Under the pieces are notes generated by a model. The model saw only the letters and a list, made by a program, of their open reading frames with translations, ran no database searches and had not been told where the DNA came from. The translations under genes and the position numbers were made by a program. DNA of 64,000 nt from Escherichia coli (GTDB taxonomy: Bacteria; Pseudomonadota; Gammaproteobacteria; Enterobacterales; Enterobacteriaceae): assembly GCF_003334405.1 (NCBI RefSeq), contig NZ_QOWM01000004.1; one strand, given 5' to 3'. Position 1 is the first letter of the stretch, and each line of letters opens with the position of its first letter. Of the stretch, positions 44,029 through 50,537 are shown one piece after another.

Positions 44029-45294
44029 TCAAACATCCATGCCCAACGCTCGCTTACCGTGAATGTTGAGGTCGGCAAGCGTAAAGCGTCCTTCCCAGTT
44101 TGTTTCATAGTCCTCGCGCGGGAAGTCGCCCGGCGATGCGCCTTTTTCCAGTGCGGCCTTCACCTTGTGCGCGTAGGCAAGATTTTTCTCGCACATCGGT
44201 GCCGCAGGAATGTACATCACGTTGCCCCAACCTTGTTGATTTTCAACGGGGGCAACGGAATGGATGACGTCGCAGTGCCACCAGACGGAGTCTCCGGCTT
44301 CGAGTTTTGGAATGCTGGTTAACGCCTCAATCAACAGTGGATGCCATTGCTCTGATACCGGCAATACTCTTCCGGGCGCTACGCCGCACAGTTCATCCTC
44401 CGGCACATCATCAAGCAGCGGACGTAACAGTACGTACGCCATAGCTTCAGGAATGGGCACGACGTGCAGCAGCCCCTGACCAGGCAGCATATCAGAGAGC
44501 GCTGTCCAGCCCTGGAATGTCCGAAACACGGAACATTTGGTGGTGTTGTCCACCGTGTACTCTTCAACTTCCGTACGATGTGCCGCATGCCAGGGATCAT
44601 ATTGCGCCAGATTGCCATTAAAGACGTTGGCGAAAACGCGCTGATACGCTGGAAGCAGCCAGCGTTCCAGTGCCCCGGAGTCGGTATGCGCTCCAAGACC
44701 TTTGGAGGTCGTTCCGGGCGGACGGCGGCGGATACGGTCAGGGTAGATGACGCTCACATCCGGGTTAAACCATTGCTTTCCATCACTTTCAAATGTCCAC
44801 AGACGATTGAGAAACGACTGCGCATTCGCCATTTCTTCACTCTGGCGGGCCTGCATTTGCGCCTGCGACCAGTAGATGGGGTAAATCTCGGGACGTGAAG
44901 CGCTGAGCGTCCCGAAGAAATTATCGCCGGGGCCTTTGTAGACCTCGTCAAAGCGGTTGCGGTCCAGATAGTCCAGCATCGACTGATCCCAGCCTAGCGC
45001 TTGTTCGCGGGGGAAATGGCCTTTTATCACCGCACAACCGCGACGTTTAATCTGTTCGCGCTGCTCTGCAGTAACATGACCTGCTTTGATATCGGCATAA
45101 GACAGCACCGGCCAGACGGCATCGCCCTGTGCTTTGAGTGCGTTGATTTCAGCCACTCGCGTGGCAATGTCATCGCTTAGCTGATTAAAGATCTGCTGGA
45201 CGTCGCCAAGCTGCGCCCGCAGCGCGTGCTTCATCTGACGGATAGCTGCTTTGTGATCGGCAGGCAATGTGTCGCTGGTAAAAGTAGAAGCCAT
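44029..45294 (-). CDS. ybiU: DUF1479 protein YbiU, putative non-heme Fe(II) oxygenase-like
   Basis: ORF 423 aa (start MASTF after GAGGTGG RBS); AHTDSG and HCDVIH motifs. Confidence 0.88.
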   Translation of the reverse strand: MASTFTSDTLPADHKAAIRQMKHALRAQLGDVQQIFNQLSDDIATRVAEINALKAQGDAVWPVLSYADIKAGHVTAEQREQIKRRGCAVIKGHFPREQALGWDQSMLDYLDRNRFDEVYKGPGDNFFGTLSASRPEIYPIYWSQAQMQARQSEEMANAQSFLNRLWTFESDGKQWFNPDVSVIYPDRIRRRPPGTTSKGLGAHTDSGALERWLLPAYQRVFANVFNGNLAQYDPWHAAHRTEVEEYTVDNTTKCSVFRTFQGWTALSDMLPGQGLLHVVPIPEAMAYVLLRPLLDDVPEDELCGVAPGRVLPVSEQWHPLLIEALTSIPKLEAGDSVWWHCDVIHSVAPVENQQGWGNVMYIPAAPMCEKNLAYAHKVKAALEKGASPGDFPREDYETNWEGRFTLADLNIHGKRALGMDV

Positions 45295-45445
45295 AACCAC
45301 CTCTCATTAACTTTCATTCGAAACCATTCTGATTTGCATGTGACAATATAAGTTATAAATAAGTTAATGCAAGTTTAATGATTTGATGTGATGTACAGGA
45401 TGTAAAAAGAAGGGAAAACCGGAGCGCACGGCTCCGGTAGAGAGG

Positions 45446-46261
45446 TCAGCTGTTAAAAGGGGATGTGTTATCCAGCACCGCCTGAATCACATTCAGCGCG
45501 CCTTCATGATTATTATCATCGGTAGCGTAACGGGCGATTTGTTTAATGTTTTCCGCAGCATTGCCCATCGCAAAGGAATAACGCGCCATTTTCAGCATCT
45601 CCGCATCGTTACCGCTGTCGCCAATCGCTACCACATTTTGCGGTGACAGATCCCAGCGTTTCAGTAACCGCGAAATACCGTTTGCTTTATGTAGACCGGG
45701 AATAATCAGGTCGATAAAGCCAAAACCACTGGTAACGGGTTTCATAATGCCATCGAGCGCTACGTGCAGTTTGTCGATCACTAACGGGATTTGTTCATCC
45801 GGCAGGTTGAGCGAAAACTTGAACAGTACGTCGTCAATCTCCTGATAATCTTTTACAGGTTTCAGGCGATGGTAGTGTTTTGCCATCAGTGCGACAAATG
45901 CTTCGGGGGCATTTTCGCTGACATATGCACTTTGCAGACCGCAGGCGACAAAATTGAGTTGCTTGTCTTTTAGCAACTCGCCAATAACAATCCGCGATTC
46001 ATGTCGGGTCAGTTCGCCGTGGAACAACTGCTTGCCATGTTCGTAAACCAGTGCGCCGTTTTCCGCGACAAAAGAGATCTCATCCTTTAGCTCAGGAAAG
46101 AATGAAATAAGCTGGTAATACTGATTACCGCTGGCAACAACGAACTTAATGCCGCGCTTTTTCAGTTCCTGATATTGCGCCATAAAACGTGGTTGGTTGT
46201 ACGTTTTGGCGTCGTTAAGAAAAGTACCGTCCATGTCTGTGACGATAACTTTTACGCTCAT
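45446..46261 (-). CDS. ybiV: HAD-superfamily (Cof-type) sugar phosphatase YbiV
   Basis: ORF 271 aa; N-terminal DMDGT motif. Confidence 0.92.
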
Positions 46262-46406
46262 AGGTGTGCTCCTGGCTCGAAAATGAAACCGTAACAGTGT
46301 AATAACAATGTGACGCAGAGCACAAATTATATTTCGAATGAAAGTAAGGATGAAATTGATGATGTGAATGATTTAGCCCGGCGACGACGCCGCCGGGCCG
46401 AGGAGA

Positions 46407-48839
46407 TTACAGCATATGTTCAGTACGGGCGATGATATCGTCCTGAGCGTCTGGAGAGAGCGCGGTGAAGAACGCGGAATAGCCCGCGACACGCACTACC
46501 AGATCGCGATACTGATCGGGATGTTTTTTCGCATCCAGCAGCGTTTCGCGGGAAACGATGTTGTACTGAATATGCCAGCCTTTATGCACTTCAAAGAAGG
46601 TACGCAGCAGGATCATCAGTTTCTGCTTGTCAGATTCGTTCTCCAGCGTTGCCGGATTCAGTTTCTGGTTGAGCAACACGCCGCCGAGAATCGCTGCCGT
46701 AGGCAGTTTACCCACTGAGCCAATGACCGCAGTAGGGCCAAGATGGTCAGTACCGGAGGCCGGGCTTGCGCCTTCTGCCAGCGGGGTGTGGGCTTTACGC
46801 CCGTCCGGTGTTGCCATAGTCTGCGCGCCAAACGGTACGTTAGCGGAGATTGATGACGTACCCGCGTAATAGTTGCCGCCAACCGGACCACGACCGTAGC
46901 GCGGATTATGGTACTGTTTCAGTTCGTCGATATAGGTCTGATAAGCGCGAGCCAGCAGCGTATCGACAGTATCATCGTCGTTGCCGTACTTCGGCGCACC
47001 GTTAATCAGCCGCTGACGCAGCTGCTCGTGAGTCAGGCCGTCGAAGTCATCTGCCAGTGCGGCAGCAAGCTGTTGCTGACCAATCGCACCTTGTTCAAAC
47101 ACCAGTTTCTTCACTGCCGCCAGGCTGTTGCCGAGGTTGGCAATGCCGACCTGCAGGCCAGAAACCCAGTCATATTTCGCGCCGCCTTGCTTGATACTTT
47201 TCGCTCGCTCAATACAGTCATCCACCAGCGCCGAGCAGAGAATATCGTGCACGTTCTCTTCCAGCATGGTGTCGACGACATATTCGATTTCGATTGATTT
47301 GCGGGTGTAGTAACGGATTTGCGTATCCCACGCGTCCATCACTTCATCGAAGTTGTTGAAGTTACCTGCCGACAACGCTTTTTCTTGTGGCAGGAACACT
47401 TTGCCGCTGGTGGCATCATGCCCGCCTTCCAGCGCCGCCAGCATCACGCGGGCGAAGTTGATAAAGCTCATGCCGGTACAGCGATAGCCCCATTTGCCAC
47501 CGACGGCGGTTTCTATACAACCAATCGCTGCGTAGTCATAAGCGTCCTGCGGTTCAATACCGAGTTTAATAAATTCCGGGATCACGATTTCGTCGTTGTT
47601 GAACGCCGGCATCCCGAAGCCGCAACGGATCACCTGTACGCAGGCGTCGAGGAAATCGTTGCTCATTCCTGCATGGTAACGCACGCTGAGGTTAGGCTGA
47701 GTGGAACGCAGGCGACCGCAGGATTCGAGGATCGCGTAAGAGAGTGGATTCACCGCGTCCATTGGTTGACCATCAACCAGATTTTGCCCGCCAATAGTGA
47801 CGTTCTGATACAGCGGACTTCCCGCAGAGGCTTTTGAGTGTGAGCCGGAGCGGATCTTGTTCACTTCCAGCAGTTTCAGCCAGCAGCTATGCAGCATCTC
47901 GATGGCGTGTTCGCGATCCAGCGTCTGGTTGAGTTCAACGTCGCGGCGATAGTACGGGTAGAGATACTGGTCCATACGACCAAACGATACTGAGTGACCG
48001 TTAGATTCGATCTGCAAAATCAACTGGATGAAGTAACACAGTTGCAGCGCCTGCCAGAAAGTCTGCGGCGGCTGGTGGGCGATAAGATCGCAGTTTTCTG
48101 CCATCGCCAGCAGTTCATCGCGACGGCTTTCGCGGGTTTCGGTCGCGGCCATTTCACGCGCCAGGGCAGCGAAACGTTCAATGTGTTCACTGACTGCCAC
48201 CAGCACGATATCAATCGCTTTCAGGAATTGCTCACCGTGTAAATCTTCCAGCACCGTCAGGTTGATGCGCGAGCGACGTTCCGCTACTTTCTCGCGCAGA
48301 CCATCAAGCCCTTTTTCCAGCAGCAGCGGGAAATTCACCGCCAGGTGCGCATCGCCGGAGGTCATATTGCCTTCCGCTTTAATGATTCCGGTCGCCAGCA
48401 GACCTTTTTGCTCATCGGTAAACATGCCGTAGCAGCGATCCTGTACGGTCTGACCGCGCCACCACGGGCACACTTCATGCAGAACGCGTTTGTTCTCTTC
48501 GCTCACCGCAAAGCCAGCACCGGGACGATCTGCCAGATCATCAATCTCTTTTTCGATCCACGAGACAGTATATTCCGGGAAGATCGGCGCGGCGCGAACT
48601 TCGCTTGCCTGGTTGCCAATGATCAACTCATCGTGTTTGATCCAGATGGTGCGATTCGCCAGGTGATGCGCCAGTGCCAGCGCGCGACGTACCGGGATCG
48701 GCTTATCGAGATGTTGTTGATACATCTCGGTATAGTGCTGCGCGCGCTCGGTACAGACTGGCGGTTTCACAATATGCACCAGCGCATTTTTGTGCGCTTT
48801 AATGCGGTCGCTGAGCGTGTCCAGTTTCAGTGTGGTCAT
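46407..48839 (-). CDS. ybiW: Glycyl radical enzyme YbiW (pyruvate formate-lyase-like)
   Basis: ORF 810 aa; C-terminal glycyl radical motif RVAGYSA; active-site region GCIE. Confidence 0.92.
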   Translation of the reverse strand: MTTLKLDTLSDRIKAHKNALVHIVKPPVCTERAQHYTEMYQQHLDKPIPVRRALALAHHLANRTIWIKHDELIIGNQASEVRAAPIFPEYTVSWIEKEIDDLADRPGAGFAVSEENKRVLHEVCPWWRGQTVQDRCYGMFTDEQKGLLATGIIKAEGNMTSGDAHLAVNFPLLLEKGLDGLREKVAERRSRINLTVLEDLHGEQFLKAIDIVLVAVSEHIERFAALAREMAATETRESRRDELLAMAENCDLIAHQPPQTFWQALQLCYFIQLILQIESNGHSVSFGRMDQYLYPYYRRDVELNQTLDREHAIEMLHSCWLKLLEVNKIRSGSHSKASAGSPLYQNVTIGGQNLVDGQPMDAVNPLSYAILESCGRLRSTQPNLSVRYHAGMSNDFLDACVQVIRCGFGMPAFNNDEIVIPEFIKLGIEPQDAYDYAAIGCIETAVGGKWGYRCTGMSFINFARVMLAALEGGHDATSGKVFLPQEKALSAGNFNNFDEVMDAWDTQIRYYTRKSIEIEYVVDTMLEENVHDILCSALVDDCIERAKSIKQGGAKYDWVSGLQVGIANLGNSLAAVKKLVFEQGAIGQQQLAAALADDFDGLTHEQLRQRLINGAPKYGNDDDTVDTLLARAYQTYIDELKQYHNPRYGRGPVGGNYYAGTSSISANVPFGAQTMATPDGRKAHTPLAEGASPASGTDHLGPTAVIGSVGKLPTAAILGGVLLNQKLNPATLENESDKQKLMILLRTFFEVHKGWHIQYNIVSRETLLDAKKHPDQYRDLVVRVAGYSAFFTALSPDAQDDIIARTEHML

Positions 48840-48844
48840 GGTTG

Positions 48845-49744
48845 TTATCCTCGTAAGGTCGCGGTTAACCCTTTCTGGCAGGCATACTGCTGGGCAAAGT
48901 CGAGCAGTTCTGGCGCATCAAGCGGTTTTTCCGGGGCGTCATAGGGCAGATTAAGTAAGTGATATTTGTTGATGCCCAGCGTGTGGTAGGGCAGAAAATG
49001 AATTTCGCCAACGTGCAGCTCGTCGGCGGCAAAATCGGTAATGGCTTTTACAGAGGTTTCGTCGGCATTAAAGCCCTGAATCAGCGGCACGCGGATAATG
49101 ATTTTTTTGCCCGCTGCGGCGAGTTTTTTCAGGTTATCCAGCACTCTGGCGGCGTTACCGTCGGTCCACTGTTTAAACGGCGCGTCGGCAACGTGTTTTA
49201 AATCGGCAAGAAACAGATCGATATAGGGCAGAGAAGGGGCGATATATTTCCACGGCACATGCAGACAGGTTTCTACCGCAGTATGAATGCCTGCCTCGTG
49301 GCTGGCTTGCAGTAGCGCCATCGCCATTTCCGGCTGCATAAAGGGCTCACCACCCGAAAGCGTTAAACCGCCGCCGCTGCGATCGTAAAACGGTTTATCG
49401 CGCAGAACGGTCGTCATGATCTCCTCAACGCTTTTCACTTCACCACACACGGTTAATGCCTGTGTCGGACAGCAGTCGGTTAACGCCGTCAGATGCTCCG
49501 GGGTTAACTTTTCCCGATGAATAAGCAAACCATTCAGCGCGCGCTCAATCACTTCCGGCGCGGCCTTAGCGCACAGCTCGCAGCCTTCCAGACACAGTCG
49601 TGCGTCATACAGCAGATCCTGCGTGCGGGCGCGGCTTTCCGGGTTCTGACACCAGCGGCAGCCCAGCGAACAGCCTTTAAGAAATACGACCGTGCGGATA
49701 CCGGGGCCATCATGGGTCGAGTAGCGCTGAATATTGAAAATCAT
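48845..49744 (-). CDS. ybiY: Glycyl-radical-enzyme activating enzyme YbiY (radical SAM)
   Basis: Start [15 protein letters not shown]…; CSLGCRWC motif plus extra Cys-rich ferredoxin-like insert; ORF track extends to 49771. Confidence 0.9.
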
Positions 49745-49874
49745 AGTTGCCTCTCTATTTCGTTCAAGCATTAAAATACTTTCGAATGAAAGTTAGATTG
49801 ATGTGCGTCAACTGTTCAGAGAGTTTTCCCGTGATAGTCTACATTCAGACAAAAAGTACATTTTGAGGATGGTT

Positions 49875-50537
49875 ATGGAACTGTATCTGGATACTTCAGA
49901 CGTTGTTGCGGTGAAGGCGCTGTCACGTATTTTTCCGCTGGCGGGTGTGACCACTAACCCAAGCATTATCGCCGCGGGTAAAAAACCGCTGGATGTTGTG
50001 CTTCCGCAACTTCATGAAGCGATGGGCGGTCAGGGGCGTCTGTTTGCCCAGGTAATGGCTACCACTGCCGAAGGGATGGTTAATGACGCGCTTAAGCTGC
50101 GTTCTATTATTGCGGATATCGTGGTGAAAGTTCCGGTGACCGCCGAGGGGCTGGCAGCTATTAAGATGTTAAAAGCGGAAGGGATTCCGACGCTGGGAAC
50201 CGCGGTATATGGCGCAGCACAAGGGCTGCTGTCGGCGCTGGCAGGTGCGGAATATGTTGCGCCTTACGTTAATCGTATTGATGCTCAGGGCGGTAGCGGC
50301 ATTCAGACTGTGACCGACTTACACCAGTTATTGAAAATGCATGCGCCGCAGGCGAAAGTGCTGGCAGCGAGTTTCAAAACCCCGCGTCAGGCGCTGGACT
50401 GCTTACTGGCAGGATGTGAATCAATTACTCTGCCACTGGATGTGGCACAACAGATGATTAGCTATCCGGCGGTTGATGCCGCTGTGGCGAAGTTTGAGCA
50501 GGACTGGCAGGGAGCGTTTGGCAGAACGTCGATTTAA
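49875..50537 (+). CDS. fsaA: Fructose-6-phosphate aldolase 1
   Basis: Start [17 protein letters not shown]…; ORF track extends from 49803. Confidence 0.92.

Follow-up and report, generated by a model that had tools for sequence, protein, structure and literature searches.

We analysed a 64,000-nucleotide stretch of Escherichia coli contig NZ_QOWM01000004.1 (hereafter the window), with a focus on the glycyl radical enzyme (GRE) locus ybiU-ybiV-ybiW-ybiY and its divergent neighbor fsaA at positions 44029-50537. A preliminary description made from the sequence had taken this locus for an anaerobic sugar-phosphate module with no assigned substrate. All five genes are intact and full-length, and the motifs that they carry are not chance occurrences. 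Several E. coli chromosomes match the segment at 100% identity; in them RefSeq names the genes ybiU, ybiV, ybiW, ybiY and fsa, and every one of the 5,426 complete E. coli genomes contains part of it. The genes are as follows.

44029-45294, minus strand: ybiU, open reading frame (ORF) of 421 amino acids, DUF1479/Gig2-like protein; in the ORF list it runs on to a GTG at 45300
45446-46261, minus strand: ybiV (supH), ORF of 271 amino acids, Cof-type HAD-IIB sugar phosphatase
46407-48839, minus strand: ybiW, ORF of 810 amino acids, glycyl radical enzyme
48845-49744, minus strand: ybiY, ORF counted from its annotated ATG (49771 if the full ORF is taken), radical-SAM activating enzyme
49875-50537, plus strand, divergent from ybiY: fsaA, ORF, fructose-6-phosphate (F6P) aldolase; 49803 is merely the most upstream GTG

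The preliminary description placed every feature correctly, apart from two gene ends that reflect the maximal extents given by the ORF caller (annotation starts ybiU at 45294 and fsaA at 49875). Its account of the locus and of four motifs, the glycyl radical motif, GCIE, CSLGCRWC and HxD...H, is confirmed throughout.

YbiW carries the glycyl radical motif RVAGYSA at residues 783-789, which fits RVxG[FWY], and its G786 (codon 46482-46484) is invariant in an alignment of YbiW, PflB and PflD. The Cys-x-Glu loop reads GCIE at residues 440-443, with C441 encoded at 47517-47519 and E443 at 47511-47513. In the alignment with E. coli PflB and PflD, C441 lies opposite the second Cys of the PflB ‘ACCVS’ stretch, G440 stands in place of the first Cys, and both YbiW and PflD have a Glu at +2 after the catalytic-loop Cys; GCIE aligns with the GCVE of PflD and of PDB entry 8id0. 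Additionally, the Cys-loop fragment aligns to residues 416-456 of the B12-independent glycerol dehydratase 1r8w, with C441 and E443 opposite residues 433 and 435, which we take to be the catalytic Cys and Glu of that enzyme. A check of the whole protein found no Cys-Cys pair anywhere in YbiW, and pyruvate formate-lyase (PFL) identity was rejected on this active-site test (G440-C441, no Cys-Cys).

Comparisons with solved structures and family models point the same way. A search of YbiW against all PDB sequences returns 37 GRE sequences at E ≤ 1e-10. With the orthologues 8id7, 8yjn and 6xs4 (the last a close homologue) set aside, the closest solved proteins are glycerol dehydratase (1e-163) and diol dehydratase (2e-151), and PflB (3e-44) is the most distant full-length GRE match. 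Among NCBIfam models, YbiW scores 1411 bits against the broad PFL2/glycerol-dehydratase subfamily TIGR01774 (cut-off 678) and stays below the cut-off of every equivalog, reaching 165 bits against the 994 of the true PFL model TIGR01255. It aligns over residues 1-810 to 8id7 and 8yjn at 1863 bits, with few substitutions, some of which resemble crystallisation mutations; the PDB names the molecule in these two entries ‘Probable dehydratase YbiW’ and that in 8yjo ‘Probable dehydratase PflD’. Taken together, active site and sequence similarity support the assignment of YbiW to the eliminase/dehydratase-type GREs rather than to the PFLs, as the preliminary description had suggested from the Cys-x-Glu loop. 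In Shigella, the YbiW protein level goes up in the gut.

YbiY, whose gene lies 5 nt upstream of ybiW, is by its motifs the predicted radical-SAM activase of YbiW, with an auxiliary Cys-rich insert that forms a putative cluster-binding domain. The CX3CX2C motif CSLGCRWC occupies residues 25-32 and six further Cys residues follow at 51, 55, 58, 91, 92 and 100, which bears out the extra Cys-rich insert described earlier. The activase model TIGR02494 scores 370 bits (cut-off 174), and the NCBIfam PflA models match YbiY in two stretches that skip residues ~45-100 as an insert. FsaA matches the F6P aldolase model PRK12653 over its full length (451 bits, cut-off 306); K85, within VVKVP, is presumably the catalytic Schiff-base Lys. 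The physiological role of fsaA was still termed enigmatic in 2020, and the use of hydroxyacetone as an FsaA donor was already known.

A substrate for YbiW is available from the literature. As summarised in section 5.1 of a review (PMC12441222), YbiW opens the ring of 1,5-anhydroglucitol-6-phosphate (1,5-AG6P) to give 1-deoxyfructose-6-phosphate (Ma et al., JACS 2024;146:26187, doi 10.1021/jacs.4c07718, PMID 39283600). According to the same summary, 1,5-anhydroglucitol (1,5-AG) and 1,5-anhydromannitol are phosphorylated by a phosphotransferase system (PTS), the ring-opening reaction requires the glycyl radical, and the pathway permits growth of E. coli on 1,5-AG; by the abstract of that review, 1,5-AG6P is toxic to human cells if it is not dephosphorylated. 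Because the literature already assigns both substrate and pathway, with PDB entries for YbiW and PflD named ‘Probable dehydratase’, the claim of the preliminary description that the locus has no assigned substrate is out of date, and the core finding, the function of YbiW, has been known since 2024. The earlier mechanistic guess is right in kind, and the proposal that the locus serves a sugar-phosphate pathway together with FsaA agrees with the review.

In the pathway as the literature gives it, 1,5-AG is imported and phosphorylated by a PTS to 1,5-AG6P, YbiY puts the glycyl radical on G786 of YbiW, and YbiW opens the 1,5-AG6P ring to yield 1-deoxyfructose-6-phosphate. By analogy with the family mechanism, C441 would form the thiyl radical and E443 would act as the base in a diol-dehydratase-type elimination that breaks the C1-O5 ether bond. 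FsaA then splits 1-deoxyfructose-6-phosphate; in the 2024 work, FsaA or FsaB is said to cleave it into glyceraldehyde-3-phosphate and hydroxyacetone, and GldA, encoded elsewhere in the genome, reportedly reduces hydroxyacetone to 1,2-propanediol.

The five genes are connected by a shared operator-like motif. An exact 14-mer occurs three times in the 64 kb, at 45310-45323, 46332-46345 and 49780-49793; these remain its only three matches even at two mismatches, and 100 shuffles contained no exact copy. The copies, together with an FNR-type box beside the third of them, are listed below.

45310-45323, minus strand: operator copy 1, an exact TTTCGAATGAAAGT that precedes the ybiU ATG by 16-29 nt and falls between promoter and ribosome-binding site
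46332-46345, plus strand: operator copy 2, also an exact TTTCGAATGAAAGT, lying between ybiW and ybiV and preceding the ybiV ATG by ~70-85 nt
49778-49793: operator copy 3, a perfect palindrome, ACTTTC-GAAT-GAAAGT, common to the divergent ybiY and fsaA promoters
49798-49811: FNR-type box TTGATGTGCGTCAA, which lies 19 bp from the operator, centre to centre, and precedes the ybiY ATG by ~60 nt

The motif is conserved in position as well as in sequence. A scan with YbiW, one genome per species, gave 80 Enterobacterales loci at 85-99% identity, to which the species counts here and below refer. At two or fewer mismatches, the motif keeps a constant distance from the gene that it precedes, in 77 of 80 species for ybiY, 52 of 55 for ybiV and 52 of 53 for ybiU.

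Published data link these sites to the DeoR-family repressor YciT. Gao et al. (2021, PMC8464067) reported YciT peaks at the locus by chromatin immunoprecipitation with exonuclease digestion (ChIP-exo) and called it an uncharacterised ybiU-ybiV-ybiW-ybiY-fsaA pathway. In the supplement to that paper, RNA sequencing of a yciT deletion shows log2 rises of 7.7 for ybiY, 7.0 for ybiU (adjusted P value, padj, 0), 3.5 for ybiW, 2.2 for ybiV and 1.8 for fsaA. Additionally, a Reg-Seq preprint (10.1101/2025.05.13.653802, 2026 version) found YciT on the ybiY promoter by DNA-affinity mass spectrometry, overlapping the RNA polymerase footprint. We predict that the three copies of TTTCGAATGAAAGT are, very probably, operators for YciT. 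An orthologue of YciT (58-81% identical, and matched by the NCBIfam YciT model) lies inside the module in 15 species, right after ybiW, beside fsaA or in a ybiU-yciT pair (loci L053, L056, L058, L065, L066, L068, L072-L075, L078-L081 and L083; at ~12450-13240 downstream of ybiW, or by fsaA or ybiU). Outside the Escherichia-Enterobacter clade, the regulator thus belongs physically to the module, to which the yciT of E. coli is not linked (osmB-yciT).

The second regulatory element is confined to the radical-enzyme operon. The box TTGATGTGCGTCAA is the sole TTGAY-N4-RTCAA match in the 64-kb window. At least 9 of the 10 FNR consensus positions are present upstream of ybiY in 61 of 80 species, 18 of these being perfect, as against ~1% of shuffled upstream regions, and box and operator are spaced 19 bp apart, centre to centre, in 73 of the 76 loci that have a box. 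No FNR-type box reaching 9 of 10 positions was found upstream of ybiV or ybiU (53 ybiU upstream regions examined). According to the Reg-Seq preprint (10.1101/2025.05.13.653802), the ybiYW promoter is active only anaerobically and shows, ~15-20 bp upstream of the YciT site, the footprint of an unassigned activator. This spacing fits the FNR-type box, which makes FNR a candidate for the activator; the conserved box probably explains the footprint, and the ybiYW promoter is predicted to need FNR and to be blocked by YciT.

In the regulatory scheme that we propose, YciT would repress four transcription units (ybiYW, fsaA, ybiV and ybiU) via one palindromic operator type present in three copies, a picture that the binding and expression data above show in part, and its inducer would probably be a sugar phosphate such as 1,5-AG6P. 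The FNR site, found solely at the ybiYW promoter, would ensure that the oxygen-sensitive enzyme is made only without oxygen. YbiV, as a HAD phosphatase, and YbiU, as a metal-binding Gig2-like protein, would be co-repressed accessories that probably handle the same pool of phosphorylated analogue independently of oxygen.

Three further elements lie in the gaps around ybiV and ybiU.

45345-45372, minus strand: sigma-70-type elements of a putative ybiU promoter, TTGCAT at 45372-45367, a 16-nt spacer and TATATT at 45350-45345
46309-46324, minus strand: CRP-like box TGTGC-N6-TCACA upstream of ybiV, between the operator and a TAGAAT -10-like hexamer, recognised by resemblance to the consensus alone
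45418-45438, minus strand: terminator-like GC hairpin with a T-run, right after the ybiV stop and between ybiV and ybiU, a candidate terminator from a consensus scan and the sequence

The ybiU promoter block is kept in 14 genera as TTGCAT...TAAAGT. In the yciT RNA sequencing, ybiU has a baseMean of 6488 vs 142 for ybiW (Gao et al. 2021 supplement, PMC8464067), and a sigma-70-type promoter without an FNR box fits such very high aerobic expression of ybiU once it is derepressed. The CRP-like box is likewise conserved in 14 genera, and its spacing to the TAGAAT hexamer does not suit a class II CRP promoter. A simple promoter and terminator scan across the locus found sites no more numerous than in shuffles.

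Across the Enterobacterales, the core of the module is the pair ybiY-ybiW. Specifically, ybiY adjoins ybiW in 80 of 80 species, and fsaA is divergent from ybiY in 61 of 78 assessable loci. The genes ybiV and ybiU are present in 53 and 52 of 72 assessable loci, respectively, and are all but confined to loci flanked by moeB and ybiT. The co-localisation on which the preliminary description had linked them to the module was thus overstated; the link itself stands on the same operator and on derepression in the yciT deletion.

In Mangrovibacter, a relocated ybiU keeps the operator motif and forms a ybiU-yciT pair beside ybiYW. In Rouxiella aceris (L065, 5074-19056), fsaA, ybiY-ybiW and two genes for YciT-like regulators, with a ybiU-yciT pair next to fsaA, are accompanied by a ROK-family kinase, a GldA-like dehydrogenase (508 bits vs a cut-off of 336), a GluP/FucP-type transporter of the major facilitator superfamily and PtsG; this locus has the look of an almost complete island for the use of anhydro-sugars, perhaps with a kinase route in addition to the PTS. 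In Yersinia alsatica (L082, 7310-14134), ybiY-ybiW has sgrR (1051 bits) on one side and a gene for SetA/B-type sugar efflux on the other, and L084 looks similar; the Y. alsatica locus contains no fsaA, yciT, operator or FNR box. Horler & Vanderpool (2009) described the same ybiYW insertion in Y. enterocolitica and proposed SgrR control. Because 1,5-AG6P is a glucose-6-phosphate analogue, SgrR wiring of the enzyme that degrades it would make sense. In Entomohabitans teleogrylli (L061, 12669-13232), the gene directly downstream of ybiW is one for a glyoxalase III of the DJ-1 family, and it may be linked to the handling of hydroxyacetone or methylglyoxal.

YbiU belongs to Pfam PF07350 (E 2e-154) and is identical to PDB 2dbi/2dbn. 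Its H203-T-D205 and H345 are kept through to Candida Gig2 and in four solved family members; among 18 diverse homologues, the H/D/H triad is present in 16-17, and R150, R240, N371 and R403 are invariant. The triad matches the His-x-Asp/Glu...His facial triad of Fe(II)/2-oxoglutarate dioxygenases. The family comprises 1,249 clusters at 50% identity. YbiU has no NCBIfam match, its profile recovers only its own family from the PDB, an hhalign comparison with TauD gives a probability of 0.3%, and the homologue search returned close ‘DUF1479’ relatives alone, none with a functional name; faint PhyH Pfam matches appear on two distant homologues. Of seven distant homologue contexts, two are clear carbohydrate operons and five are uninformative. 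On one metagenome contig (L091, 3458-15223), a Gig2-like YbiU homologue with 40% identity occurs in a sugar operon together with an ABC sugar transporter, a 290-aa unknown, an epimerase-family protein, Dak1/Dak2, an SGL lactonase, an IlvD/Edd sugar-acid dehydratase and a KDPG-type aldolase. The arrangement of this operon suggests that the YbiU family may act early in the catabolism of an unusual sugar. In Candida, GIG2 is among the N-acetylglucosamine (GlcNAc) metabolic genes repressed by Hxk1, and the title of a 2014 paper calls it GlcNAc-inducible; the Neurospora homologue of YbiU is a direct target of CLR-1/CLR-2.

Within E. coli, ybiU is variable. The window-type allele (44029-45445) is present in ~4,220 of the 5,426 complete genomes. 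The species-representative strain (L005, 13543-14802) has a mosaic allele with 81-82% protein identity to the window type; the N-terminal 90 amino acids of this allele are ~58% identical, and it is less similar to the window type than is the Citrobacter copy (93%). In about 265 complete genomes there is a gene with ~90% DNA identity to this second allele, in one case beside IS621 (L086 and L087 were examined), ~900-1,100 genomes appear to be without either allele, and E. albertii and E. whittamii are without ybiU. YbiV scores 221 bits against TIGR00099 (cut-off 137), is identical to PDB 1rlm/2hf2 and contains D9-x-D11; a literature search of loose design returned no paper joining YbiV with anhydroglucitol.

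Taken together, we consider it highly probable that the locus is the E. coli module for anaerobic 1,5-AG breakdown (‘radical-mediated glycolysis’, Ma et al. 2024), repressed by YciT and with an FNR-type site at ybiYW alone. Several points weigh against this conclusion. The 1,5-AG6P assignment reaches us second-hand, from the review summary (PMC12441222) and the PDB molecule names, and fsaA is not adjacent in 17 of 78 species. The ChIP-exo peaks, mapped to NC_000913.2, miss the operator copies, the nearest of which are 155 and 103 bp away, there are two peaks in all at the locus, none is listed for the ybiW-ybiV operator copy, and the peak windows contain no motif-like sequence. The Reg-Seq YciT and activator footprints are equated with the operator and the FNR-type box by matching spacing alone, and should the Reg-Seq start site be correct, the position of the box would be about -24, vs the canonical -41.5. 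The Reg-Seq authors state that the ChIP-exo YciT site was placed ~100 bases too far upstream (10.1101/2025.05.13.653802), and we treat the offset as a coordinate or peak-calling displacement; it stays a caveat.

The alternative that survives best concerns the purpose of the module rather than its chemistry. The Yersinia ybiYW genes sit in an sgrR/SetA/B glucose-phosphate-stress locus for which Horler & Vanderpool proposed SgrR control, the E. coli regulon contains a HAD sugar phosphatase, and 1,5-AG6P is, in the summary given by PMC12441222, toxic in human cells. The module could accordingly serve to detoxify a dead-end glucose-6-phosphate analogue, as relief from sugar-phosphate stress, instead of harvesting carbon and energy. 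We regard this as possible, and as the less likely role, because E. coli can grow on 1,5-AG by this pathway (PMC12441222) and FsaA and GldA feed glycolysis and fermentation; the two roles are in any case compatible and not exclusive.

A second alternative limits the functional module to ybiY-ybiW (plus fsaA), with ybiV and ybiU as bystanders whose 14-mer is not a functional operator. Both genes are missing beside ybiW in ~20 of 72 species, ~20% of E. coli genomes lack ybiU or have it replaced and E. albertii lacks it, the locus has just the two ChIP-exo peaks, and the review (PMC12441222), in its account of the pathway, names no role for YbiU or YbiV. Against this stand the strong derepression of both genes in the yciT deletion, above all that of ybiU, the fixed distance of the motif upstream of each gene, and the ybiU-yciT pairs of Mangrovibacter, with the motif kept, and of Rouxiella. 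These observations make a bystander role for ybiV and ybiU improbable. Hardly any credence is left for YbiW/YbiY as a second pyruvate (or 2-ketoacid) formate-lyase with fsaA, ybiV and ybiU as unrelated neighbours: the MG1655 annotation of YbiW as ‘putative pyruvate formate lyase’, the ‘formate C-acetyltransferase’ label on PDB 6xs4 and several other entries, and the weak TIGR01255 match speak for it, and the Gly in place of the first PFL Cys with Glu at +2, the TIGR01255 score far below its cut-off, the remoteness of PflB, the different reaction assigned in the literature and the common operator and repressor of the neighbours speak against it.

Returning to the 1,5-AG module, we put forward, as a long shot, a reading in which its regulon combines an aerobic and an anaerobic route. 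Here YbiU would be an oxygen-dependent non-haem iron enzyme for an anhydro-sugar phosphate, for example hydroxylating 1,5-AG6P at C1, next to the ring oxygen, to yield glucose-6-phosphate, and YbiV would be a phosphatase that acts as a relief valve. This reading is consistent with the shared operator, the +7 log2 derepression and the sigma-70-type promoter without an FNR box, and likewise with the ybiU-yciT pairs in Rouxiella and Mangrovibacter, the metal triad with four invariant Arg/Asn residues and the relatives in sugar operons. By the account of a 2025 review, a probiotic strategy would call for an enzyme that tolerates oxygen and works on 1,5-AG or its phosphate (PMC12441222); if our reading of YbiU were true, YbiU would be such an enzyme.

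The 2024 assignment closed long-standing gaps for YbiW, PflD, FsaA, FsaB and GldA, and it shows how gut bacteria consume 1,5-AG, a dietary sugar analogue and clinical marker of glycaemia whose phosphate causes neutropenia in type Ib glycogen storage disease (GSD-Ib) and G6PC3 deficiency. What remains new here is modest: the regulatory architecture, and two regulon members, ybiU and ybiV, without an assigned role. The use of one operator three times, together with an FNR-type site at the radical-enzyme operon only, connects the 2021 ChIP-exo paper with the 2026 Reg-Seq preprint. The latter describes ybiYW as without functional annotation and does not seem to know of the substrate assigned in 2024; work on the regulation of the locus and work on its biochemistry have not yet been joined.

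The locus can be compared with several known systems. The characterised YbiW (Ma et al. 2024; 8id7, 8yjn) is essentially the same protein with the same ybiY and fsaA neighbours, and we see no substantive difference beyond the fact that the window comes from a non-K-12 strain. A paralogous locus of MG1655 comprises gldA-fsaB-ptsA and frwC-frwB-pflD-pflC-frwD, with identities of 38% between YbiW and PflD, 36% between YbiY and PflC and 70% between FsaA and FsaB. Like the YbiW locus, it encodes a paralogous GRE, activase and aldolase, and according to the review summary (PMC12441222) the product is the same. Unlike the YbiW locus, it has PTS genes of its own and gldA, no ybiU or ybiV homologues and no YciT-type operator (none within 3 mismatches in the pflD/frw/fsaB/gldA locus), and PflD acts on a different epimer, 1,5-anhydromannitol-6-phosphate.

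With the GRE 1,2-eliminases (glycerol/propanediol dehydratase, CutC, HypD and isethionate lyase), YbiW shares the Gly loop and Cys-x-Glu, at PDB E values of 1e-163 to 1e-109, and its activase YbiY, like theirs, has an auxiliary Cys-rich region. YbiW differs from them in its leaving group, which is the intramolecular ring ether oxygen of a phosphorylated sugar analogue rather than water, an amine or sulfite, and the NCBIfam equivalog models of these families all score it far below cut-off. YciT resembles GlpR, AgaR, SrlR and UlaR in its DeoR-type helix-turn-helix, its sugar-phosphate-isomerase-like effector domain and the repeated palindromic operators through which it would repress several units; its gene is unlinked in E. 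coli and module-linked in other Enterobacterales. YbiU, in turn, resembles Candida albicans Gig2 (6akz) and the structures 2dbi, 2csg and 4rgk in its membership of PF07350 and in its H-x-D motif with a distal His; no sequence relation to TauD or other PDB families is detectable, and its relatives recur in sugar-regulated gene sets.

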